From a virus (lineage: Duplodnaviria > Heunggongvirae > Uroviricota > Caudoviricetes), in IMG/VR virus record IMGVR_UViG_2778261689_000005: a DNA stretch of 10,179 nucleotides; one strand, written 5' to 3'. A program made the translations under genes and the position numbers. Numbering within the stretch: position 1 is the first letter of the stretch; each line of letters opens with the position of its first letter. The notes under the pieces are model-generated. The model searched no databases, was not told the origin of the DNA, and was given only the letters and a program-made list of their open reading frames with translations. Positions 1-9,514 of this stretch are shown here, one piece after another.

Positions 1-1053
1 TTACGGGGTAATGCCAACCGCTGCCGCCACTTTGTCGCCACTTGGCAGCGTTGCCAGAGGATTGAAACGGAGCGCCGTTTCCAGATGATCCGGTGCCAGA
101 TGTGCGTAACGCATAGTCATTTTTATATCGTGGTGTCCGAGAATTTTTTGTAAGGCCAGAATGTTTCCACCCGACATCATGAAGTGCGCCGCAAACGTAT
201 GGCGCAGAACGTGTGTGAGTTGACCGCGAGGGAGCACGATAGACGTTTTTTCCATCACGGATAAAAATTGAAAATAGCAGTCTGTGAAGAAATTGAACCC
301 ATCAAGCGCCATGATCTCTTCGTAAAGCTCTTTACTGATAGGGATACTTCTGTTTTTCTTCCCCTTCGTTCTTACAAAGGTAATTCGGTATTTGGTCACC
401 TGTGAACGAGTAAGATTTACGGCTTCTCGCCAGCGTGCGCCTGTGCTTAAGCATATCTTAACTACCAGTGCTAGAATTGGGTCCTGACGTTTGCAATCAG
501 CCAGTAATTCAACAATCTGCTCATGGGTAAGCCATGCCATCTCTTTTTCTGCGATGGTGAATTTTCGCATGTTCTCCAGTGGGTTCGGATACGCCCATTC
601 GCCCAGACGGGATAGTTCGCTAAAAACACTACTTAGATAGCTTTGCTCCAGGTTAATGGTGACCGGGCTTGCTCCTTTCTTCCATTTCTCGCTGAAGTAG
701 ATCTCGCCTGTCAGGCGTTTATCTCGATAGTGGGCAAACATTTTAGAGGTGAGATCGGTTGCAAGAGGATTGCCCAGAGCGTCAACCATCAGCAGCAATT
801 TGTCATAGACATGCTGCCCAGCAGTCAGAGATTTACCATGTAGTTTGAACCATAGCTCAACCACGTCTTTCAGGGTTCGACGATCCACTGATTCGCCCAG
901 CCATGGCTTTGATTCGGTTTCTTCCATAGTGTGACGCTCAAAAGCCAGAGCTTCGCCTTTGGTGGCGAATTGTTTACGCACACGACGCCCACTTCGTCCG
1001 GCGGGGTAACATTCGCAAAGCCATTTCCCTGTGGTGAGTTTTCGTACTGCCAT
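1..1053 (-). CDS. int: P2/186-family tyrosine integrase (site-specific recombinase), about 350 aa
   Basis: Six-frame ORF 1..1209(-). Start placed at ATG 1051-1053 (minus) because the protein from there (MAVRKLTTGKW...GRRVRKQFATKGEALAFERHT) matches the N-terminus of P2 Int as I recall it, and GGAGGG lies about 7 nt upstream on the minus strand. C-terminal catalytic region has tyrosine-recombinase motifs (LSTGARWREA, HVLRHTFA, LGHHDIKMTMRYAH). The upstream 52 codons of the ORF are probably not translated. Confidence 0.9.
   Translation of the reverse strand: MAVRKLTTGKWLCECYPAGRSGRRVRKQFATKGEALAFERHTMEETESKPWLGESVDRRTLKDVVELWFKLHGKSLTAGQHVYDKLLLMVDALGNPLATDLTSKMFAHYRDKRLTGEIYFSEKWKKGASPVTINLEQSYLSSVFSELSRLGEWAYPNPLENMRKFTIAEKEMAWLTHEQIVELLADCKRQDPILALVVKICLSTGARWREAVNLTRSQVTKYRITFVRTKGKKNRSIPISKELYEEIMALDGFNFFTDCYFQFLSVMEKTSIVLPRGQLTHVLRHTFAAHFMMSGGNILALQKILGHHDIKMTMRYAHLAPDHLETALRFNPLATLPSGDKVAAAVGITP
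19..40. repeat. attL core candidate: 22-bp direct repeat CGCTGCCGCCACTTTGTCGCCA, inside the 3' end of int
   Basis: Matches 7325..7346 at 21 of 22 positions (C versus T at the 12th base). A match this long is not expected by chance in 10 kb. Flanking sequence on either side of the two copies is unrelated. Position (int 3' end on one side, just after the ogr stop on the other) is what a P2-like prophage boundary looks like. Confidence 0.6.
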
Positions 1054-1241
1054 AAAAAATGCCCTCCAGTAGAGAGCATTTTTACTGTATGTATAACCAG
1101 TGTCAATGTATGAAATCCTACGACCATACATCTCACTGAAGCCATAATGAAGTTGGCTATTCTTTTTGCTATGTGAGCATGTAACTTTTGCGGTTAACCT
1201 GCGGCTCATTTTTATTTTAGACGCAGATATAAAAGCAAAAG

Positions 1242-1433
1242 TTATCGTGAGTTTTTAGTACAGATTTTTTTGGATTTACTAATAGTTCCATCATTGCAAA
1301 CGAATTTGCCATCTGAGGTACAGTGAGAAACACCTCCCTTTTTCCCTGAGCAGGGATAATTTCTAGCATAGGTAGTTAGTGGGTTTAATAACAAAGAACA
1401 TGACAAAACCACAAAAAATACCTTACCAAGCAT
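1242..1433 (-). CDS. Small predicted secreted cysteine-rich, lysine-rich peptide (63 aa), unknown function; possible moron
   Basis: ORF with strong Shine-Dalgarno (GGGAGG about 5 nt upstream of ATG on the minus strand), beginning 15 nt after the cI stop and in the same frame and strand as cI. N-terminus [23 protein letters not shown] looks like a Sec signal peptide (positive n-region, hydrophobic core, TYA before a likely cleavage site). Mature part of about 40 aa has 4 Cys and many Lys. Local G+C is about 34% by my count over 1211..1440. No homolog recognised from memory. Confidence 0.45.
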
Positions 1434-1448
1434 AGTTTCCTCCCGGTA

Positions 1449-2018
1449 CTATTTAACATACTTGACTGTTAAACTTATAATTTTACCAATTATTTCAATG
1501 TCTTCTATCTTACATTCGAAGGCTCTGTTTCCACCCTCGACGAAGATTCTTCCACCGGGTAAACGAGTAATGTCACGGATCGTTACTTCGCCATCAATAC
1601 TTATTACCCATTTACCATCACGTATATCATCAAATTCTTTATCACAAATAAATTCAGAATTGTTATCTGTGATGACAAAAGGTTTTTTAAACGTAGAGGG
1701 TAAAAATCCCTTATCAAAAATATAAAAACCGTCTTCACGCAAGGCACCATCAGATAATACATATTTAGCAACTTCCATAGTATTTGTATTACCTGAAGTT
1801 TGCTTTGAACCATGTCCGGTTGTGAGCCAATTAAGCGAGGTGCCCGTTTCAAGGGCGCACTGGATTACCCATTCTGCTGGGAATGAGTCACGCATGTAGC
1901 GTGTGGCGAGTGTACTTTTAGAGATTCCTAAATGATCGCACAACGCCTGTCGAGTTTTGAATCCATAAGCTTCTACCATGCGCTCTATAGCGCCTCGTCC
2001 GCCTTTCTCCAAATTCAT
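1449..2018 (-). CDS. cI: Phage 186-type CI immunity repressor, about 189 aa
   Basis: Six-frame ORF 1449..2024(-) begins at GTG; the ATG two codons in (2016-2018) with GGAG about 5 nt upstream is the likelier start. Motifs EAYGF, ALETG..L.WL.TG.G, RLPGG and FEC.I.DI match what I recall of 186 CI. Divergent from the apl-cII operon, as in 186. Confidence 0.85.
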   Translation of the reverse strand: MNLEKGGRGAIERMVEAYGFKTRQALCDHLGISKSTLATRYMRDSFPAEWVIQCALETGTSLNWLTTGHGSKQTSGNTNTMEVAKYVLSDGALREDGFYIFDKGFLPSTFKKPFVITDNNSEFICDKEFDDIRDGKWVISIDGEVTIRDITRLPGGRIFVEGGNRAFECKIEDIEIIGKIISLTVKYVK

Positions 2019-2042
2019 GGTCACTCCAAGTGAACTTTTATC

Positions 2043-2071
2043 TTGACGATTTCATTGTGCGATCGTATGTT
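2043..2071 (+). promoter_or_regulatory. Candidate rightward early/lytic promoter (pR-like): TTGACG, 17-bp spacer, TATGTT
   Basis: -35 TTGACG at 2043-2048 and -10 TATGTT at 2066-2071 with a 17-nt spacer, in the 125-bp region between divergent cI and apl. Flanked by inverted hexamers GTGAAC (2030-2035) and GTTCAC (2078-2083) that could be operator half-sites. A GATC lies in the spacer (2062-2065). Leftward pL could not be placed with confidence. Confidence 0.4.
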
Positions 2072-2143
2072 TATGGTGTTCACAAAATACAAACGATCCG
2101 TATTCGTCCTGATTAATCATCATTAAACGAGGAATGTTGCATC

Positions 2144-2365
2144 ATGAGACCTAACATTTCAATCACTCTTACCACGCCTCATGTGACTATTGAGCGCTAT
2201 AGCGAGCTGACAGGGCTGTCCATCGATACCATCAATGACATGTTGGCTGACGGACGCCTTATCCGTCACCGTTTGCGCAAAGATAAAAAACGCGAAAAAG
2301 TGATGATCAACATAGCAGCCATGACCGTTGATGCGCTTTCAGAATGCAATCTAAACCTTAATTAG
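2144..2365 (+). CDS. Apl/Cox-like helix-turn-helix excisionase and switch regulator, 73 aa
   Basis: First gene of the rightward operon, GAGGAA about 9 nt upstream of ATG. HTH-like segment [25 protein letters not shown] and overall size and position match P2 Cox / 186 Apl. Confidence 0.7.
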
Positions 2366-2397
2366 TTCGATTCTGAAATACATCAGAGGCATTGACC

Positions 2398-2907
2398 ATG
2401 TTTGATTACCAAGTTTCCAAACATCCACATTTTGATGAAGCCTGTCGTGCATTTGCACTGCGCCACAATCTGGTGCAACTGGCAGAACGTGCAGGCATGA
2501 ATGTGCAGATTCTGCGGAACAAGCTGAACCCAGCTCAGCCTCATCTATTAACCGCACCAGAAATCTGGCTGCTTACCGATCTGACTGAAGATTCAACGCT
2601 GGTAGATGGTTTTCTGGCACAGATTCATTGTCTGCCATGTGTACCGATTAATGAGGTGGCAAAAGAGAAACTGTCACATTACGTCATGAGTGCAACCGCA
2701 GAGATCGGGCGTGTTGCTGCAGGTGCGGTATCTGGCGATGTAAAAACCAGTGCAGGTCGTCGTGATGCTATCAGCAGCATTAACTCTGTAACACGACTGA
2801 TGGCGTTGGCTGCTGTTTCATTGCAGGGCCGTTTACAGGCTAACCCTGCGATGGCGAGTGCAGTTGATACCGTGACCGGACTCGGTGCTTCATTCGGTTT
2901 GCTGTGA
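2398..2907 (+). CDS. cII: Phage 186-type CII regulatory protein, about 169 aa
   Basis: Six-frame ORF 2392..2907 starts at TTG; ATG at 2398 gives [20 protein letters not shown]..., which matches the 186 CII N-terminus as I recall it. AGAGG about 8 nt upstream. Confidence 0.85.
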
Positions 2908-2914
2908 GGTGCTT

Positions 2915-3211
2915 ATGCTGACGAAAGAACCATCATTTGCATCGCTGCTGGTAAAGCAAAGCCCGGCAATGCACTACGGTCACGGCTGGATCATGGGTGA
3001 GGATGGAAAACGCTGGCATCCATGTCATTCACAAGATGAATTGCTGTCTGAATTGACCACGAGGAAACGGAGAAAGTCAAAATGTATGCAGCGGAAAGTG
3101 AAGTGGTTTATCAGTTTTGTTACAGAGGGGAGAGTTATTCAGTACCTGAAGATGATTTGCTCTGTTGTTATCCGTCGTTGTCGGGCGATGGCAGTTACTT
3201 TTTCACGCTAA
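2915..3211 (+). CDS. Small early-region protein (98 aa as open), possibly Fil-like; 3' portion uncertain
   Basis: ATG 2915 with GAGGT about 4 nt upstream, immediately after the cII stop. N-terminal half (MLTKEPSFASLLVKQSPAMHYGHGWIMGEDGKRWHPCHSQDELLSELTT) is protein-like. The C-terminal 43 codons overlap the next ORF in another frame and look low-complexity. Confidence 0.45.
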   Translation: MLTKEPSFASLLVKQSPAMHYGHGWIMGEDGKRWHPCHSQDELLSELTTRKRRKSKCMQRKVKWFISFVTEGRVIQYLKMICSVVIRRCRAMAVTFSR

Positions 3212-3306
3212 AGGATGGGACGTTTTTACGGGGAGAGCAGGTTAAAGAGATGGTACGAAAAAATGTATCTCCCCTTGAGCGTTACCGTAAGAACAAAGAA
3301 CGATAG
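3082..3306 (+). CDS. Hypothetical early-region protein, 74 aa
   Basis: ATG 3082 with GGAG about 9 nt upstream. Protein-like composition. Overlaps the 3' end of the preceding ORF by 130 nt in a different frame. Confidence 0.4.
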   Translation: MYAAESEVVYQFCYRGESYSVPEDDLLCCYPSLSGDGSYFFTLKDGTFLRGEQVKEMVRKNVSPLERYRKNKER

Positions 3307-3328
3307 GTGCGTTTGGGGGATATGAAGT

Positions 3329-3670
3329 ATGGCAATTAATGGCGCTGCGGCGACTGTTCCATTAAGCCCCGGAGAACGCCTGAATGGACTTAATCACATT
3401 GCGGAATTAAGGGCGAAAGTATTTGGCCTGAATATTGAGTCAGAGCTTGAGCGGTTTATTAAAGATATGCGTGATCCACGGGATATCAATAACGAACAAA
3501 ATAAACGGGCACTGGCTGCCATATTCTTTATGGCAAAAATTCCAGCTGAACGTCATAGCATCAGCATTAATGAGCTGACCACTGACGAAAAGCGGGAGTT
3601 GATTAAAGCAATGAATCATTTTCGTGCAGTGGTGAGCTTATTTCCCAGACGGCTAACCATGCCGAATTAA
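3329..3670 (+). CDS. Hypothetical early-region protein, 113 aa
   Basis: ATG 3329 with GGGGGA about 8 nt upstream. Balanced, charged, helical-looking sequence with no internal low-complexity. Same strand and operon context as cII and dam. Confidence 0.6.
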   Translation: MAINGAAATVPLSPGERLNGLNHIAELRAKVFGLNIESELERFIKDMRDPRDINNEQNKRALAAIFFMAKIPAERHSISINELTTDEKRELIKAMNHFRAVVSLFPRRLTMPN

Positions 3671-3737
3671 CCAACCAATGAAATTAATGGCGTAAACCCG
3701 CCGGGCATCCCTTTATCTAAATTCAGGAGAATTGATT

Positions 3738-3971
3738 ATGCGTAATATTGAAACCCTCTCGACCAAAACCGGACCGGATGACGCAGGGCTTAATATTTTA
3801 CTGACAGAGGCTCGTCTGGAAGAACGCCGGGCAAGGGCTGAAGCAATGGCAGCTCGCCTTGATAGCCTGGCGTGTCATATCACATCCCGCCAGCTAACCC
3901 ACGTCGAAGCGGCAGAACTGCTTCGTGTGACTGCTGAAGCAATCCAGAACGAAGCGCAGGAGATCCACTAA
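3738..3971 (+). CDS. Hypothetical early-region protein, 77 aa (resembles a conserved P2-like early protein, possibly DUF2732-like; family name from memory only)
   Basis: Six-frame ORF 3732..3971 starts at TTG; ATG 3738 with AGGAGA about 7 nt upstream is preferred. Stop TAA overlaps the start of the next gene (TAATG at 3969-3973). Confidence 0.6.
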   Translation: MRNIETLSTKTGPDDAGLNILLTEARLEERRARAEAMAARLDSLACHITSRQLTHVEAAELLRVTAEAIQNEAQEIH

Positions 3972-4198
3972 TGGCTGATGCAATGGATCTCGTACAGCAG
4001 CGCGTTGAAGAAGAACGCCAACGCCATATCCGTGCTGCCCGTGCCAAAACGCCGGGCGTGTCCCGCGTGCTTTGCATTGAGTGTGAAGCGCCAATTCCGC
4101 CAGCACGCCGCCGTGCCATTCCGGGTGTGCAGCTTTGCATTACCTGTCAGGAAATCGCAGAGCTGAAAGGCAAACATTACAACGGAGGTGCTGTATGA
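3971..4198 (+). CDS. TraR/DksA-family C4 zinc-finger protein, 75 aa
   Basis: CxxC...17 residues...CxxC arrangement (CIECEAPIPPARRRAIPGVQLCITCQ) and size typical of TraR-like proteins of F plasmid and P2-like phages. AGGAGA about 8 nt upstream. Start overlaps the upstream stop and the stop overlaps the dam start. Confidence 0.8.
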   Translation: MADAMDLVQQRVEEERQRHIRAARAKTPGVSRVLCIECEAPIPPARRRAIPGVQLCITCQEIAELKGKHYNGGAV

Positions 4199-5052
4199 GC
4201 ACCATCCTGAAATGGGCGGGAAATAAAACTGCCATAATGTCCGAACTGAAAAAACATCTTCCTGCTGGCCCGCGACTGGTTGAACCTTTCGCGGGTTCCT
4301 GTGCTGTGATGATGGAGACGGATTATCCCAGCTATCTGGTTGCGGATATTAATCCTGATTTAATCAACCTCTATAAAAAGGTTGCCGCTGATTGTGAATC
4401 GTTTATATCTCGCGCCAGAGTTTTATTTGAGATCGCAAACAGGGAGGTGGCTTATTACAACATAAGGCAGGAGTTTAATTACTCAACTGAAATTACTGAT
4501 TTCATGAAAGCGGTATATTTCCTGTATCTCAATCGTCACGGTTACCGTGGTTTATGTCGCTATAACAAGAGCGGGCATTTCAACATTCCCTACGGTAATT
4601 ATAAAAATCCGTATTTCCCTGAAAAAGAAATTCGCGCATTTGCAGAAAAGGCCCAGCGAGCAACGTTTATCTGCGCCAGCTTTGATGAAACGCTGGCGAT
4701 GTTGAAGGCGGGGGATGTGGTGTATTGCGATCCGCCGTATGACGGTACGTTTTCCGGCTATCACACTGACGGCTTCACTGAAGATGACCAGTATCACCTG
4801 GCATCTGTTCTTGAACATCGGTCATCAGAAGGACATCCGGTCATTGTTTCTAACAGTGACACATCCCTGATCCGTTCGCTGTATCGCAATTTTACTCACC
4901 ACTACATCAAGGCAAAACGCAGCATCGGTGTGGCAGCTGGCGAGGGTAAATCAGCAACAGAAATCATTGCTGTTTCCGGGCCGCGCTGCTGGGTGGGATT
5001 TGATTATTCGCGTGGCGTGGATAGTTCTGCCGTGTACGGAGTACGTGCATGA
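4195..5052 (+). CDS. dam: Dam-family DNA N6-adenine methyltransferase, about 285 aa
   Basis: Six-frame ORF 4135..5052; start placed at ATG 4195 (GGAGG about 5 nt upstream, ATGA overlap with the upstream stop). N-terminal LKWAGNK, SAM-binding-like EPFAGSCAV and catalytic DPPY motifs in the order seen in Dam-family enzymes. Confidence 0.9.
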
Positions 5053-6308
5053 GTCATGCCGATATGAACAACTGCTGCGGCTTTAACGAAGCTGCCGCAT
5101 CGTTCTCATGGAACAGCCCGAAAAAGGCCATTAACCCTTATCTGGACCCGGTGGAAGTTGCGCCGGTTTCTACGCTTTCAAACCTGATCACTCTGTACGC
5201 TGCCGATAACGAGCAGGAACAGCTGCGCCGTGAGGCGCTGAGTGATCAGGTCTGGGAGCGTTATTTCTTTAATGAATCCCGTGATCCTGTCCAGCGCGAA
5301 ATGGAACAGGATAAGCTCATTAGTCGGGCAAAGCTGGCGCATGAGCAGCAGCGTTTTAATCCGAATATGGTCATTCTGGCGGACGTCAACGCCCAGCCTT
5401 CCCATATCAGCAAGCCGCTGATGCAACGTATTGAATACTTCAGCAGCCTGGGCAGGCCAAAGGCTTATTCCCGCTATTTACGTGAGACGATTAAGCCATG
5501 TCTGGAACGACTGGAGCATGTACGCGACAGTCAGCTATCTGCATCTTTTCGCTTTATGGCAAGCCATGAAGGGCTGGACGGCCTGCTGATCCTGCCTGAA
5601 ATGAGTCAGGATCAGGTGAAACGCCTGTCCACCCTGGTAGCTGCGCATATGAGTATGTGCCTTGATGCCGCTTGTGGCGATTTGTATGCCACCGATGACG
5701 TTAAGCCAGAAGAAATCCGCAATACATGGGAAAGGGTGGCAGCGGAAACCCTGCGTCTGGATGTCATCCCGCCTGCGTTTGAGCAACTCCGTCGGAAAAG
5801 AAACCGCCGTAAACCCGTGCCCTATGAACTCATTCCGGGTTCGCTGGCGCGTATGTTGTGCGCCGACTGGTGGTATCGGAAATTATGGAAGATGCGTTGC
5901 GAATGGCGGGAAGAGCAGTTGCGTGCAGTCTGCCTTGTCAGCAAAAAAGCATCTCCTTATGTCAGCTATGAAGCCGTGATGCATAAACGTGAGCAGCGCC
6001 GTAAGTCGCTGGAGTTTTTCCGTTCTCATGAACTGGTGAACGAAGACGGCGACACGCTGGACATGGAGGATGTGGTAAACGCCAGCAGCAGCAACCCAGC
6101 GCATCGCCGCAATGAGATGATGGCCTGTGTTAAAGGTCTGGAGCTTATCGCGGAAATGCGCGGTGACTGCGCCGTTTTCTACACCATCACCTGTCCGTCA
6201 CGTTTCCATTCCACGCTAAATAACGGCAGGCCCAACCCAACCTGGACAAATGCGACGGTACCCGCCGTGAAAAATCGTGGCATAAGACCACCGTCGGGGA
6301 AGTGGTGA
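5049..6308 (+). pseudogene. A: Truncated replication initiation gene A (P2 gpA family); N-terminal ~395 codons retained, catalytic domain missing
   Basis: ATGA overlap with the dam stop; GGAG about 7 nt upstream. Internal segments ([35 protein letters not shown]) align with the N-terminal half of P2 gpA as I recall it. The frame ends at 6306-6308 before the region that would carry the metal-binding histidines and active-site tyrosines. The last ~22 codons read gene D sequence out of frame. Confidence 0.8.
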
Positions 6309-7015
6309 AGGAAATAGCCGCGCGGCACAAGCTGAAGATGGCACTGGGTAAAGACCTGTCGGATAAGCCCGTGGAGCATATAGACCAGACTAATGAGAGT
6401 GACGGCAGTTTTCTGATGCGGCTGGCGCGACAGTACGGTGCCATCGCGTCGGTGAAAAATGGCAATCTGTTATTCATCCGGCAGGGGCAGGGCAAAAGCG
6501 CCACTGGTAAACCTCTGCCAGTGATCACTATCACACGCAAGGACGGCGACAGTCACCGATTTACCCTGGCAGATCGCGGAGCCTACACGGGCGTAATTGC
6601 CAGCTGGTTGCATACCCGCGAACCTGCGAAGAAAGAAAGCACCACGGTGAAGCGTAAGCGCAGAACTAAGAAGCAGAAGAAAGAGCCAGAAGCGAAGCAG
6701 GGCGATTATCTGGTGGGTACGGATGAAAACGTGCTGGTACTTAATCGCACTTATGCCAACCGGAGCAACGCCGAACGAGCGGCGAAAATGCAGTGGGAAC
6801 GCCTGCAACGCGGCGTTGCGTCATTTTCGCTACAACTGGCAGAAGGGCGGGCAGATCTCTACACGGAAATGCCTGTGAAGGTCAGTGGTTTTAAACAGCC
6901 GATAGATGATGTGGAATGGACCATTACGACTCTGACGCATACCGTCAGCCCGGATAACGGTTTTACGACCAGTCTGGAGCTTGAAGTGAGGATTGATGAT
7001 TTCGAAATGGAATGA
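6224..7015 (+). pseudogene. D: 3' fragment of tail gene D (P2 gpD family), about the C-terminal 250 codons, lacking its own 5' part
   Basis: Open frame from the stop at 6221-6223 to TGA 7013-7015; first in-frame start is GTG 6302. Segments SWHKTT, ESDGSFLMRLAR, SVKNGNLLF, ADRGAYTGV, GRADLYTEMPVKVSGFK and GFTTSLELEV are characteristic of gpD. Similarity appears to begin near 6255-6265, directly after gene A similarity ends, in a different frame. Confidence 0.75.
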
Positions 7016-7039
7016 TTCTTCGCAATGGAGAACTTTTAA

Positions 7040-7071
7040 GTTTGCAAAATGGAATAATGCGGTATCATTAT
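7040..7071 (+). promoter_or_regulatory. Possible ogr promoter (TTGCAA, 18-bp spacer, CATTAT)
   Basis: Hexamers at 7042-7047 and 7066-7071 upstream of ogr. Weak match; listed only as a candidate. Confidence 0.25.
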
Positions 7072-7105
7072 TGTGAATTTAGCAAAAATGGGGAGAACTC
7101 GAAAA

Positions 7106-7324
7106 ATGATGATTTGCCCACTGTGTGGAAGTGCAGCCCATACTCGCAGCAGTTTTCAGGTATCTTCATTGACCAAAGAGCGTTACAACCAGTGCCAGAA
7201 CATTAACTGCAGCCATACTTTTGTTACCCATGAAACTTTTGTTCGTTCGATTGCAACGCCAAAAGAGTCAAATCCGGTTCAGCCGCATCCAATGAAATCA
7301 GGACAGGTGGCGCTCTCTCTTTGA
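7106..7324 (+). CDS. ogr: Ogr-family zinc-finger late-gene transcriptional activator, 72 aa
   Basis: Six-frame ORF 7073..7324; start placed at ATG 7106 (GGGGAG about 9 nt upstream), giving MMICPLCGSAAHTRSS...KERYNQCQNINCSHTF..., which parallels P2 Ogr including the four zinc-ligand cysteines. Size matches Ogr. Confidence 0.85.
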   Translation: MMICPLCGSAAHTRSSFQVSSLTKERYNQCQNINCSHTFVTHETFVRSIATPKESNPVQPHPMKSGQVALSL

Positions 7325-7346
7325 CGCTGCCGCCATTTTGTCGCCA
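7325..7346. repeat. attR core candidate: 22-bp direct repeat CGCTGCCGCCATTTTGTCGCCA, immediately after the ogr stop
   Basis: Partner of 19..40, 21 of 22 identical. Marks the ogr-proximal end of the element; sequence beyond it is host intergenic DNA leading to the ybjL terminator. Confidence 0.6.
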
Positions 7347-7400
7347 TCGTTAAAAAACAGTGCTTCTAACATCATGATTTTAAACAGCTTAAATTTCAGG

Positions 7401-7447
7401 CAACAAAAAACCCATCAACCTTGAACCGAAATGGCGGGGTTGATGGG
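7401..7447 (-). terminator. Rho-independent terminator candidate downstream of ybjL
   Basis: Perfect 10-bp inverted repeat CCCATCAACC (7411-7420) and GGTTGATGGG (7438-7447), followed on the minus strand by TTTTTTGTTG (complement of 7401-7410). Loop is long (17 nt) but can pair internally. Lies about 113 nt past the ybjL stop. Confidence 0.4.
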
Positions 7448-7559
7448 CTCCACAAAATGGGGACATCAAAGAAAAGCAGTGGCACTAATTAAGACTGATG
7501 CCCTGCGGAAAAGTTCTGCGGTTGTGCAAAAAAATTTCATTTTCAGGGCAACTTCAGTT

Positions 7560-9245
7560 TTATCCTAATCCTGGCCATACCATGACGATGATTGTCCCTG
7601 CCAGCGTCAGCAGGACGTTGGCGATTGCATAGGTGCCCGCATAGCCCAGCGCCGGGATGTTACTGCGAGCTGTATCACTGATGATCTCCATTGCCGGCGC
7701 GCAGGTACGTGCGCCCATCATTGCGCCGAACAACAGCGCGCGGTTCATTCGCAATACATAAGCACCGAACAAGAAACAGATAACCACGGGCACCAGACTG
7801 ACAATCAATCCGGCAATCAACATCTGACCGCCAATCGCGCCCAGGCCGTTATTAATACCGCTACCGGCGCTCAGACCAACGCCTGCCATAAACACCATCA
7901 AGCCGAACTCTTTCACCATGCTTAATGCACCCTGCGGAATGTAACCGAAGGTCGGGTGGTTAGCACGCATAAAGCCCAGCATAATTCCGGCGAATAACAA
8001 CCCGGCAGCGTTCCCCATGCCGAAACTGAATGTGCTGAACTGGAAGGTGATCATCCCGATCATCAGCCCAATAACAAAGAAGGCGCAGAATGCCAGCAGG
8101 TCAGTGACCTGGCTGTGAATCGAGATAAAGCCGATGCGATCGGCGATGGTTTTTACGCGGCGGGCATCGCCGCTGACTTGTAAAACGTCACCTTTGTTAA
8201 GCACGACGTTGTCATCTATCGGCATCTCAATCTGGCTACGAATGACGCGGTTAAGGAAGCAACCGTGATCGGTCAACTTCAGTTGTGCGAGACGTTTACC
8301 TACAGCGTTATGGTTTTTAACGACCACTTCTTCAGTGACGATACGCATGTCGAGAAGGTCACGATCGAAAACTTCTTTACCGTTACGGAAGCTGGGATCG
8401 AGTCGGGCATGGGCGTCGGGATAGCCTACCAACGCTATTTCATCGCCCATTTGTAGCACGGCATCACCGTCTGGATTTGCCAGAATCCCGTTACGTCGAA
8501 TACGTTCAATGTAGCAGCCGGTTTGTCGATAAATACCCAGTTCACGCAGATTTTTGCCGTCGGTCCAGGCCACCAGTTCCGGGCCGACGCGATAGGCGCG
8601 GATCACCGGTAAATAAACCTTACGGTTGGCATCAGTGTCCAGGCCACGTTCGCGGGCGATTTGCTGGGCGCTGGTCTGTAAGTCCTGATGCTGCAATTTC
8701 GGCAAGTAACGCGCACCAACAATCAAACTCACCAGACCGATTAAATAGGTTAAGGCATACCCGAGGCTCAGATTATCCAGTGCCAGTGAGAGCTGCCTGC
8801 TTTCCATGCCGGAATGACGCAGTGTATCGCCAGCACCGACCAGAACCGGTGTCGACGTCATAGAGCCTGCTAACATACCGGCCGTCAGGCCAATATCCCA
8901 GCCAAACAGCTTACCTAACCCTAAGGCGATCACCAGCGCACTGCCAACCATCACCAGTGCTAACATTAGGTAATTTTTCCCATCGCGAAAAAAAATGGAA
9001 AAAAAGTTCGGTCCGGCTTCGACCCCGACGCAGAAAATAAACAGCATAAAGCCAAGATTAAGCGCATCGGTGTTAATGCTGAAATGTTGTTGGCCTAATA
9101 ACAGCGATACGACTAAAACGCCAATGGAATTACCCAGTTGGATCGAACCAAGTCGTAACTTTCCGAGACATAGCCCAAGCGCGAGGACCACAAATAATAA
9201 CAGAATGTAATTCCCATTTAACAATTCGGCGACGTTTATATTCAC
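7560..9245 (-). CDS. ybjL: Putative transport protein YbjL (AAE-family membrane transporter with two cytoplasmic RCK_C/TrkA-C-type domains), 561 aa
   Basis: Full-length ORF; sequence ([34 protein letters not shown]...) recognised as E. coli YbjL. GTG start at 9243-9245 (minus). Hydrophobic N- and C-terminal halves flank a soluble central region. Confidence 0.95.
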
Positions 9246-9514
9246 GGAGGCTAACTTCTTGTTTACTAGTAAGCTGTTGAAAGAAATGGTAATTTACGAT
9301 AATGTTTTTTACCAGAATTCAGGGCGCAGATTCATTCAGCGCACCTAAACGATAGTAAAGTAACAATATATTTTACTAGTGTAATCACATTAGGTATCAA
9401 CGGCTATATGAATTGCGTTGGCCTATATTAGCATGGAATGCGAAGCGGCTTTATCTTACTGAACGCCACACTGGCGAAAAATGTGTTCGATAGACGCAGT
9501 GTCAGGAGGAACGA

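Follow-up and report, generated by a model that had tools for sequence, protein, structure and literature searches.

The window analyzed here, a stretch of 10,179 nucleotides from the viral record IMGVR_UViG_2778261689_000005 (Caudoviricetes), carries phage genes enclosed by a direct repeat, which raises the question of whether this repeat marks the borders of an integrated element. The two copies of the repeat, CGCTGCCGCCA[C/T]TTTGTCGCCA, are located at 19-40 and 7325-7346 and are identical at 21 of 22 positions. Shuffled sequences gave on average 0.01 matches, and none of the 200 shuffles reached 2. The right copy immediately follows the stop codon of ogr (7322-7324), and the left one is contained in the 3' end of int, where it encodes G-D-K-V-A-A-A, 18 nt ahead of the int stop. 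A sequence-only reading of this DNA had described a compact, strain-specific P2/186-type remnant, delimited by the repeat and inserted next to ybjL. The repeat, its location and the strain-specific remnant were all confirmed, and phage regulatory genes are indeed found between the two copies according to RefSeq annotation, Pfam and PHROG. The borders, as described below, had to be moved.

The element is a decayed prophage of the 186/P2 type (Peduoviridae), located at the 3' end of the small RNA gene rybB. Its gene content is listed in the table. Compared with the phage 186 record by Pfam and PHROG, the genes int, cI, apl/cox, cII and fil of the lysogeny and early module are present in order, and the succession of the DUF5347, DUF2732 and TraR/DksA genes agrees with the 186 early operon. 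The Ogr/Delta (B) activator gene lies beside the att site and is preceded by a D fragment, an arrangement characteristic of 186-type P2-like (Peduoviridae) prophages. The integrase is wholly phage-encoded, with its stop codon at window positions 1-3, and shares 56% identity with phage 186 Int. Its N-terminus displays the 186-type residues W11, E14 and Y16 (GKWLCECYP, corresponding to GGWICELYP in phage 186); arm-binding residues of the 186 type are W, E and Y rather than Y, D and R (PMC3448106). Pfam returned no match for the 73-aa Cox/Apl-like ORF, which was assigned through PHROGs. Two genes are truncated. A' covers only positions 16-371 of the 852 in the phrog_91 profile, and its alignment to full-length relatives ends at 6260; RefSeq treats it as a pseudogene without C-terminus, and 'D as a pseudogene without N-terminus.

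Table. Features of the rybB prophage remnant in window coordinates, with the basis of each assignment.
Feature	Position	Strand	Basis
int, 186-type tyrosine integrase, 350 aa	1-1053	-	Pfam Int_N and Phage_integrase; RefSeq integrase
P' arm, two tandem 11-bp candidate Int arm-type sites, TGCCGCCACTT and TGTCGCCACTT	22-43	+	consensus match
Small ORF between cI and int, 63 aa	1242-1433	-	phrog_6000; RefSeq hypothetical or YdcA family
cI, 186-type immunity repressor	1449-2018	-	Pfam Phage_CI_repr and Phage_CI_C
Cox/Apl-like excisionase and repressor, 73 aa	2144-2365	+	phrog_575 'Cox-like excisionase and repressor', E = 6e-31
cII, lysogeny-establishment regulator	2398-2907	+	Pfam Phage_CP76
fil, 186 Fil family cell-division inhibitor	2915-3211	+	Pfam Phage_186_Fil
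Three small early genes: DUF5347, DUF2732, TraR/DksA zinc-finger protein	3329-4198	+	Pfam
DNA adenine methylase (D12 class)	4195-5052	+	Pfam MethyltransfD12, E = 1e-76
A', first 404 codons of rolling-circle replication endonuclease gene A, truncated	5049-6260	+	phrog_91
Deletion junction A'|'D, TA microhomology	6259-6260		BLAST against full-length relative
'D, C-terminal 251 codons of tail gene D, truncated	6260-7015	+	phrog_52 and phrog_12925, tail protein
ogr (B in phage 186), late-gene zinc-finger activator	7106-7324	+	Pfam Ogr_Delta
P arm, two tandem 11-bp candidate Int arm-type sites, TGCCGCCATTT and TGTCGCCATCG	7328-7349	+	consensus match
att core, attR copy, AACAAAAAACCCAT	7402-7415	+	four-way comparison of attB (K-12), attL, attR and attP (KP12)
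rybB, host sRNA gene, intact, integration target	7405-7483	-	Rfam RF00110; exact match to the presumed 79-nt RybB

The borders were established from the empty site. In K-12, the order is rcdA stop codon, 20 bp, rybB and ybjL. The insertion point of the prophage between rcdA and ybjL is precisely the 3' end of rybB, a gene that remains intact. The earlier statement that ybjL is flanked by rcdA in K-12, with no prophage, was correct, but the sRNA gene between them, which is the actual target, had been missed. The 79-nt sequence that we take to be RybB is found without mismatch and reproduces the K-12 rybB interval; the Rfam family matches at 7402-7480 with 105 bits, for a gathering score of 40. 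The same 14 bp, AACAAAAAACCCAT, are present in attP, attB, attL and attR alike. Base for base, attL consists of the left part of attB, the core and the right part of attP, and attR of the left part of attP, the core and the right part of attB. The attR copy overlaps rybB by the final 11 nt of the gene, and its attL counterpart falls outside the window, at -87 to -74 (74-87 bp left of position 1). Phage DNA extends 74 bp leftward beyond position 1. The whole element measures 7,489 bp.

These borders predict an attP with the order ogr, 22-mer, core, 22-mer, int, and this arrangement is contiguous in Klebsiella phage KP12, where the 717-bp predicted attP was recovered as a single piece (coverage 100%, identity 98.6%). 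Moreover, the annotation of Klebsiella phage 4LV2017 gives GCAGGCAACAAAAAACCCAT as both attL and attR; these sites carry the same core as the window element, and both 22-mers are located inside them. The core corresponds to the descending stem of the rybB terminator and its U-tract. A crossover within this identity would therefore regenerate rybB intact, and the alignments place it somewhere inside the 14 bp. The terminator hairpin overlapping the core has a predicted energy of -9 kcal/mol (z = -2.1), only modestly better than shuffled sequence. Identity between core and attB is 14 bp in E. coli and 19-20 bp in Klebsiella.

The 22-bp repeat is neither the att core nor the boundary of the element. 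A core of 22 bp duplicated by integration, with an element spanning 19-7346 and host DNA directly outside, would be in keeping with a repeat that is statistically real and located at the int end and right after ogr. However, the K-12 locus contains no match to the 22-mer, even allowing 3 mismatches, and the empty sites among 5,426 complete E. coli genomes are all K-12-like, none with the single copy that had been expected at a prophage-free locus. The site reconstructed from left flank, one 22-mer and right flank was contiguous in none of these genomes. Moreover, the DNA outside the repeats (left, 92 bp; right, 55 bp) is contiguous phage DNA in KP12 and is found inside the annotated att sites of 4LV2017. 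Window bases 1-18, previously taken as host flank, are the final six codons of int, and the earlier implication that no phage DNA lies left of position 1 fails on both the contiguous attP of KP12 and the annotated attL of 4LV2017. A 22-bp core is thus extremely improbable.

Concentric direct repeats, 14 bp outside and 22 bp inside, are also what a nested insertion predicts: an older rybB element might have left about 170 bp with a 22-mer, used as secondary attB by a 186-like phage that entered later. However, the intermediate (170-bp insert with one 22-mer) occurs in 0 of the 5,426 genomes, and in a free phage genome the interval from ogr to int holds the 14-bp core along with the two 22-mers. 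In other genera, the 22-mer accompanies int homologues that use other host sites. Such a succession is hardly credible. We consider it very probable that a 186-type phage integrated at rybB with the 14-bp core as junction, that the 22-mers are Int arm sites, and that a deletion followed.

The 22-mers are best explained as the P and P' arm-type sites of a heterobivalent Int, to which the integrase would bind. Each 22-mer, offset by 3 nt, becomes a pair of tandem 11-bp candidate sites, so that at least two direct arm-type repeats are found on each side of the core. The P' pair, which falls in the 3' coding end of int, is 92 bp away from the core, and the P pair 55 bp. The 186-type integrase arm-site consensus is tgccGCCActt (PMC3448106), and the work of Nilsson et al. 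also supports an arm-type reading. The phage 186 record gives the consensus YAYCGCCAYTY, in tandem 11-bp pairs flanking attP on both sides, and labels its own arm sites 'predicted'. In all relatives examined, the tandem pairs are confined to the two prophage ends. In the P arm of KP12, both octamers, TGCCGCCA and TGTCGCCA, are kept, and the spacer and 5' flank vary. By-eye inspection of the att arms revealed no convincing motif of the Apl/Cox or IHF type. Phased repeats are present between core and int (AAYAAGTTAG twice; TGGTGGT twice, 10-bp spacing); the pR-pL region has nothing comparable.

Conservation of the 22-mer was assayed in species-representative genomes, where a scan for exact matches, blind to any change that the site tolerates, returned 25 loci; chance alone would give about 0.07. 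The int homologues that adjoin the exact 22-mer in Vibrio, Plesiomonas and Photobacterium have 48-55% identity, and the copy of Vibrio profundi is placed at the end of the int match. Shewanella and Rhodanobacter also contain it, with no int match in the stretch examined. The flanks of the loci in these five genera are unrelated. This conservation might result from the coding of the Int C-terminus only, the right copy being a chance or recombinational duplicate without function in cis; indeed, the left copy is in frame within int in Enterobacteriaceae and Serratia. However, in Vibrio rhodolitus, Plesiomonas, Photobacterium, Shewanella and Rhodanobacter the 22-mer is outside the matched int or has no int match beside it, and it persists without being joined to int in strain 2017.11.01CC, Escherichia sp. 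E1V33 and Klebsiella sp. R390. In 2017.11.01CC, a 350-bp insertion has come between int and window bases 1-44, yet all 44 bp are retained beside the core (44/44), which speaks in favour of a function in cis and against a coding one. The 11-bp periodicity and the two-sided layout also agree with phage 186. A coding role alone is therefore very unlikely, and arm-type sites remain the preferred reading.

The prophage has lost one large segment. BLAST against the full-length relative aligned window 2130-6260 with 3918-8049, and window 6259-7515 with 32284-33540. Relative to 4LV2017, 24,234 bp (24.2 kb) are absent. The missing DNA comprises the remainder of A, which is cut at codon 404, and the accessory genes downstream of it, together with cos and every gene for head, lysis and tail as far as nt 344 of D, which is thus without its first 344 nt. 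The element is therefore a remnant and not a functional member of the Peduoviridae prophages. The exact A'|'D junction was found in 2 of the 5,426 E. coli genomes.

The following history would account for these observations. A 186-type P2-like temperate phage would have inserted at the 3' end of rybB by Int-mediated site-specific recombination, with a crossover inside AACAAAAAACCCAT restoring the intact gene. The phage copy of the core may also serve as the 3' half of the terminator ending the lysogenic cI-int transcript. Integration would have moved one arm-site pair to each prophage end, where the pairs lie within the element at 55 bp and 92 bp from its borders. The DNA from mid gene A to nt 344 of D was subsequently lost through an illegitimate deletion at a 2-nt microhomology. 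The residue, with int, cI, cox/apl, cII, fil, the small early genes, dam, A', 'D and ogr, is incapable of replication or particle production. CI of the remnant may still confer immunity, and Int together with Cox could still excise the element.

Phage 186 (Eganvirus ev186) is organized in the same way, with the order int, cI, apl/cox, cII, fil, DUF2732, TraR/DksA zinc-finger gene and A, and with D and ogr/B on the opposite side of attP. Its arm-type sites are likewise tandem 11-bp CGCCAYTY repeats flanking the core, and its target is also the 3' end of a structured small RNA gene that is regenerated upon integration. The two phages differ in the target itself, which is the tRNA-Ile gene ileY with a 36-bp identity for phage 186 and the sRNA gene rybB with 14 bp in E. 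coli for the window phage. Unlike in phage 186, the end of the int coding sequence contains the P' pair, and the P pair adjoins the stop codon of ogr; the attP of the window phage is thus far more compact (about 165 bp between arm pairs). Accessory genes also differ, the window element having a dam methylase, and the window copy is a deletion remnant.

Closer relatives integrate at rybB itself. This gene is E. coli defence hotspot #29, occupied by 'Felsduovirus' prophages (Hochhauser et al. 2023), and K. pneumoniae has an island named Kpn38RybB (Hudson et al. 2014). These prophages, Kpn38RybB, 4LV2017 and KP12 share the int type, att core, putative arm sites and target gene with the window element. 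In their alignable parts, the rybB-integrating Peduoviridae relatives are 95-98% identical to it at the nucleotide level. However, they are full-length, at 33-38 kb, whereas the window element lacks 24.2 kb, including the variable-cargo region downstream of A. The attR junction was present in 1,105 of the 5,426 E. coli genomes, so that the site is occupied in about 20% of them. Both the rybB landing site of this phage group and 186-like arm-type sites were already known, and in this respect the finding is ordinary.

For the annotation of P2-family prophages, a long near-perfect repeat at the int and ogr ends is not necessarily the att core; in 186-type phages, it would rather be an arm-site pair. 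Taking the 22-mer as border clips about 160 bp and hides the true target, an sRNA terminator. The 22-mer is found unchanged from Enterobacteriaceae to Vibrio and Rhodanobacter and can thus be used conveniently as a tag in searches for this integrase lineage.

The sole item possibly worth further work is the breakpoint in D. The break after nt 344, TA|CCCGCCGTG, is common to four different E. coli rybB remnants; in the others, the same 'D end is joined to cII', to terminase P' or to tape-measure T'. All four junctions run through TA, with G(G)T(T)A closing the left side. Given 86-96% identity among the left halves, and an immunity region of another kind in one form, the four are not simple derivatives of one another. 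Tentatively, nt 344 of D could mark a site-specific break or protected DNA end driving prophage inactivation, as opposed to random decay, although we hold this to be the less probable case. A pseudo-origin for gpA, the rolling-circle initiator, was rejected as the cause, no similar sequence being present in gene A or elsewhere in 4LV2017. A pseudo-cos was also rejected, as it matched cos at only 8 of 9 positions, which is chance level. A scan of species-representative genomes with a D-site 20-mer, for further junction types, gave 0 matches. The K-12 cryptic prophage PR-X (ogrK-yegZ) was considered as a further case and discarded because its breakpoint differs. PR-X lies at another locus, measures 629 bp, is without int and immunity region, and retains only the last 219 bp of D. 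Like the window element, it is a P2-family remnant that retains ogr and part of D and directly adjoins the 3' end of an sRNA gene, cyaR/ryeE; ryeE has been cited as a phage target (PMC3603311).

Except for base 9251, the window is identical to the reverse strand of 3060238-3070416 in the genome of E. coli L9, isolated from a chicken (NZ_CP142044.1), and to strain EC-07. L001 denotes the L9 locus with 8 kb added on either side; subtracting 8000 from its positions gives those of the window. Base 9251, just upstream of the start codon of ybjL, is C in the window and A in L9, and the window may thus derive from EC-07 or another strain almost identical to it. The 22-bp direct repeat described in the sequence-only reading, CGCTGCCGCCA[C/T]TTTGTCGCCA, proved to be real: its copies are identical at 21/22 positions, and dinucleotide-preserving shuffles gave a mean of 0.01 matches. 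The first base of the right copy directly follows the ogr stop codon, and the left copy lies at the end of int, within its reading frame (minus strand, 1053 to a stop at 3-1). Bases 1-18, previously taken as left host flank, are inside this frame and are therefore the final six int codons (V-G-I-T-P-stop).

In K-12, the rcdA stop codon is followed by 20 bp, the sRNA gene rybB (minus strand) and then ybjL. The 22-mer had been proposed as the prophage border, a single copy being expected in the empty site. It was absent from the K-12 rcdA-ybjL interval with up to 3 mismatches allowed. The attB reconstructed on this basis (left flank, one 22-mer, right flank) was found with the required 80% coverage at no place in complete E. 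coli genomes (0/5,426), where all unoccupied sites were K-12-like. Moreover, phage DNA extends to the left of position 1, attP being contiguous in Klebsiella phage KP12. The 22-mer was therefore rejected as an att core, since none of the empty sites in these genomes contains it and the KP12 attP contains both copies. Alignment of K-12 with L9 instead placed a 14-bp direct repeat, AACAAAAAACCCAT, at the two borders of the insertion; this repeat covers the last 11 nt of rybB (descending terminator stem and U-tract). With one core counted, the element is 7,489 bp long. This correction of the borders is the main result of the analysis.

The attP predicted by joining the ogr-to-core segment of the right end to the core-to-int segment of the left end is 717 bp long and gave a single contiguous match in KP12 (coverage 100%, identity 98.6%), located between the ogr and int genes of this phage. 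In the record of Klebsiella phage 4LV2017, which is in prophage orientation, attL and attR are annotated as GCAGGCAACAAAAAACCCAT, and both 22-mers fall within these marks. The 22-mers are phage DNA. The sequences of attL, attR, attB and attP satisfied the Campbell model base for base. Along attP, the P arm pair follows the ogr stop and is separated by 55 bp from the core; another 92 bp lead to the P' arm pair, in the 3' end of int. When read on the minus strand, the core forms the 3' half of a hairpin with a U-tract after it (AACCCGUUUACAUAAAUGGGUUUUUUGUU; -9 kcal/mol, z = -2.1). It is situated 50-80 nt beyond the int stop codon and therefore plausibly terminates the lysogenic transcript. The phage thus has a mimic of the end of the rybB terminator, and recombination inside this sequence restores rybB. 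Core identity to attB extends over 19-20 bp in Klebsiella versus 14 bp in E. coli.

Each 22-mer consists of two tandem 11-mers. The arm-site consensus of the 186 group is tgccGCCActt (Nilsson et al., PMC3448106). The GenBank record of phage 186 annotates predicted Int arm-type sequences with the consensus YAYCGCCAYTY, and in its sequence tandem 11-bp pairs flank attP on both sides. The window Int is 56% identical to that of phage 186 and has the same N-terminal residues W, E and Y, proposed to discriminate 186-type from P2-type arm recognition (PMC3448106). Tandem motif pairs were restricted to the two prophage ends in every rybB-type relative examined; the P-arm copy of KP12 keeps both octamers but differs in the spacer and 5' flank.

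As judged from sequence, the strongest evidence on the nature of the 22-mer is a cross-species scan with one genome per species. The exact 22-mer, TGCCGCCACTTTGTCGCCACTT, was found at 25 loci versus ~0.07 expected by chance (computed on 596 Gb, both strands), in hosts including Vibrio, Photobacterium, Plesiomonas, Shewanella, Parashewanella, Aeromonadaceae, Rhodanobacter, Serratia, Citrobacter and Enterobacter. Visible int homologues adjoin it, with identities as low as 48-55%, and the flanking nucleotides are unrelated. This pattern is the signature of a conserved, putative protein-binding site moving with the integrase, and not of a host target; we infer that Int binds the 22-mer.

Among the species-representative loci (L012-L036), the exact 22-mer was mostly found beside 186-type int genes. 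It was present twice on one contig of Shewanella sp. OPT22. Another match came from a MAG labelled Bacillota, a contig that is probably enterobacterial contamination because its int is 98.9% identical to the window int. In strain 2017.11.01CC (locus L006), an insertion of about 350 bp (545-894), which carries a small ORF, splits window bases 1-44, kept beside the core (44/44), from the rest of int. Its position is exactly at the boundary of the P' arm-site pair and the remaining int, so that the int C-terminus is changed and the arm sites still adjoin the core. The sequence directly after the 22-mer is the same in Escherichia sp. E1V33 (L036) and different again in Klebsiella sp. R390 (L034), where int is also detached. 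This slot looks like a preferred place for extra genes.

Features of the element and junctions of related remnants (A', 'D, cII', P' of terminase and T' are truncated genes; positions refer to the window unless a locus is named).
Feature	Position or strains	Strand	Sequence or content	Support
22-mer copies	19-40; 7325-7346
P' arm pair (int side)	22-43		TGCCGCCACTT + TGTCGCCACTT
P arm pair (ogr side)	7328-7349		TGCCGCCATTT + TGTCGCCATCG
14-bp core, left copy	L001 (L9 locus) 7913-7926		74-87 bp left of position 1
14-bp core, right copy	7402-7415
rybB	7405-7483	minus	intact	Rfam RF00110, 105 bits at 7402-7480
Gene order, first part			int, 63-aa ORF, 186-type cI, Cox-like excisionase/repressor, cII, fil	Pfam, PHROGs, RefSeq
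Gene order, middle			DUF5347, DUF2732, TraR/DksA zinc-finger protein, Dam methylase	Pfam, PHROGs, RefSeq
Gene order, last part			A' (first 404 codons, replication), 'D (last 251 codons, tail), ogr	Pfam, PHROGs, RefSeq
Breakpoint TA/CCCGCCGTG	6259-6261; L006 12678/12679; L007 5005/5006; L008 5006/5007
A' junction	L9, EC-07		left side ...GACGGTA
cII' junction	L6-21, A134_1EC, EC06		left side ...GTGCGGTA
Terminase P' junction	2017.11.01CC		left side ...GGTTGTA
Tape-measure T' junction	MB06234		left side ...TGCGGTTA

Pfam, PHROGs and RefSeq agreed on the gene order. At window 6259/6260, the alignment to 4LV2017 passes from 8049 to 32284 via a TA microhomology, and the deletion relative to this phage is 24,234 bp. 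The deleted part comprises the remainder of A, the accessory genes that follow it, cos and every structural and lysis gene, and the element is incapable of replication or packaging. With int, cox and both complete att sites kept, its excision would be conceivable. The exact A'/'D junction was found in only 2 of the 5,426 E. coli genomes; strain TUM12357 has this remnant too, minus another 456 bp spanning the junction.

A 74-aa ORF (3082-3306, plus strand) that RefSeq does not annotate matched phrog_4312 strongly (E = 7e-53). This ORF overlaps fil (annotated at 2915-3211) at the 3' end of that gene, and sits where phage 186 has dhr. Window 3046-3329 gave no alignment with the APEC O78 relative. 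Larger remnants at rybB carry cargo (APEC O78, L005 9458-10806; L006 9061-11326; another E. coli remnant, L007 2030-3706), comprising genes for proteins with a TIR domain and with an RNA-binding domain and, between int and cI, a gene for a DUF4041 protein. The region downstream of A, which is the site of the TIR-domain and RNA-binding-domain cargo, has been lost entirely from the window element.

On the D side, the breakpoint (...TA/CCCGCCGTGAAAAATCG, following nt 344 of the gene) was nucleotide-identical in remnants with four different left partners, and the left sides of all these junctions end in G(G)T(T)A. A shared D end with varied partners is a nested-deletion pattern with one end fixed. 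The left halves of these remnants are not simple derivatives of each other: identity there between the window and 2017.11.01CC is 95.8%, and the immunity region of L6-21 differs. Their 'D-ogr parts show 7-15 substitutions per 1,141 bp. The breakpoint region was not intact in only ~19 of the 1,111 genomes with this D allele, and endpoints other than nt 344 also exist. No similarity to gene A, the origin of A or cos was found at the breakpoint site. The breakpoint might result from sequential microhomology deletions; a site-specific or protected DNA end in D is also possible.

The attR junction (ogr to rybB) was present in 1,105/5,426 complete E. coli genomes. Hochhauser et al. (2023) reported rybB as hotspot #29, with 'Felsduovirus' prophages as sole occupants (109 of their genomes), and Hudson et al. 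(2014) described a Fels-2-like island precisely within K. pneumoniae rybB. The K-12 remnant PR-X (ogrK-yegZ), which adjoins the sRNA gene cyaR, is a close analogue. Altogether, the element is therefore of an ordinary, already documented kind.

PR-X (5115-5821 of its locus, L011; K-12 2167114-2167820) comprises ogrK and yegZ, a 219-bp D fragment. It overlaps the 3' end of cyaR and is a second example of a P2-family remnant at an sRNA terminator. Another very compact remnant was observed in Serratia quinivorans (L035 1420-4300). In it, an int 3' fragment carries the arm pair at 1420, and a further pair comes after ogr, at 4276-4297, ~3 kb away.
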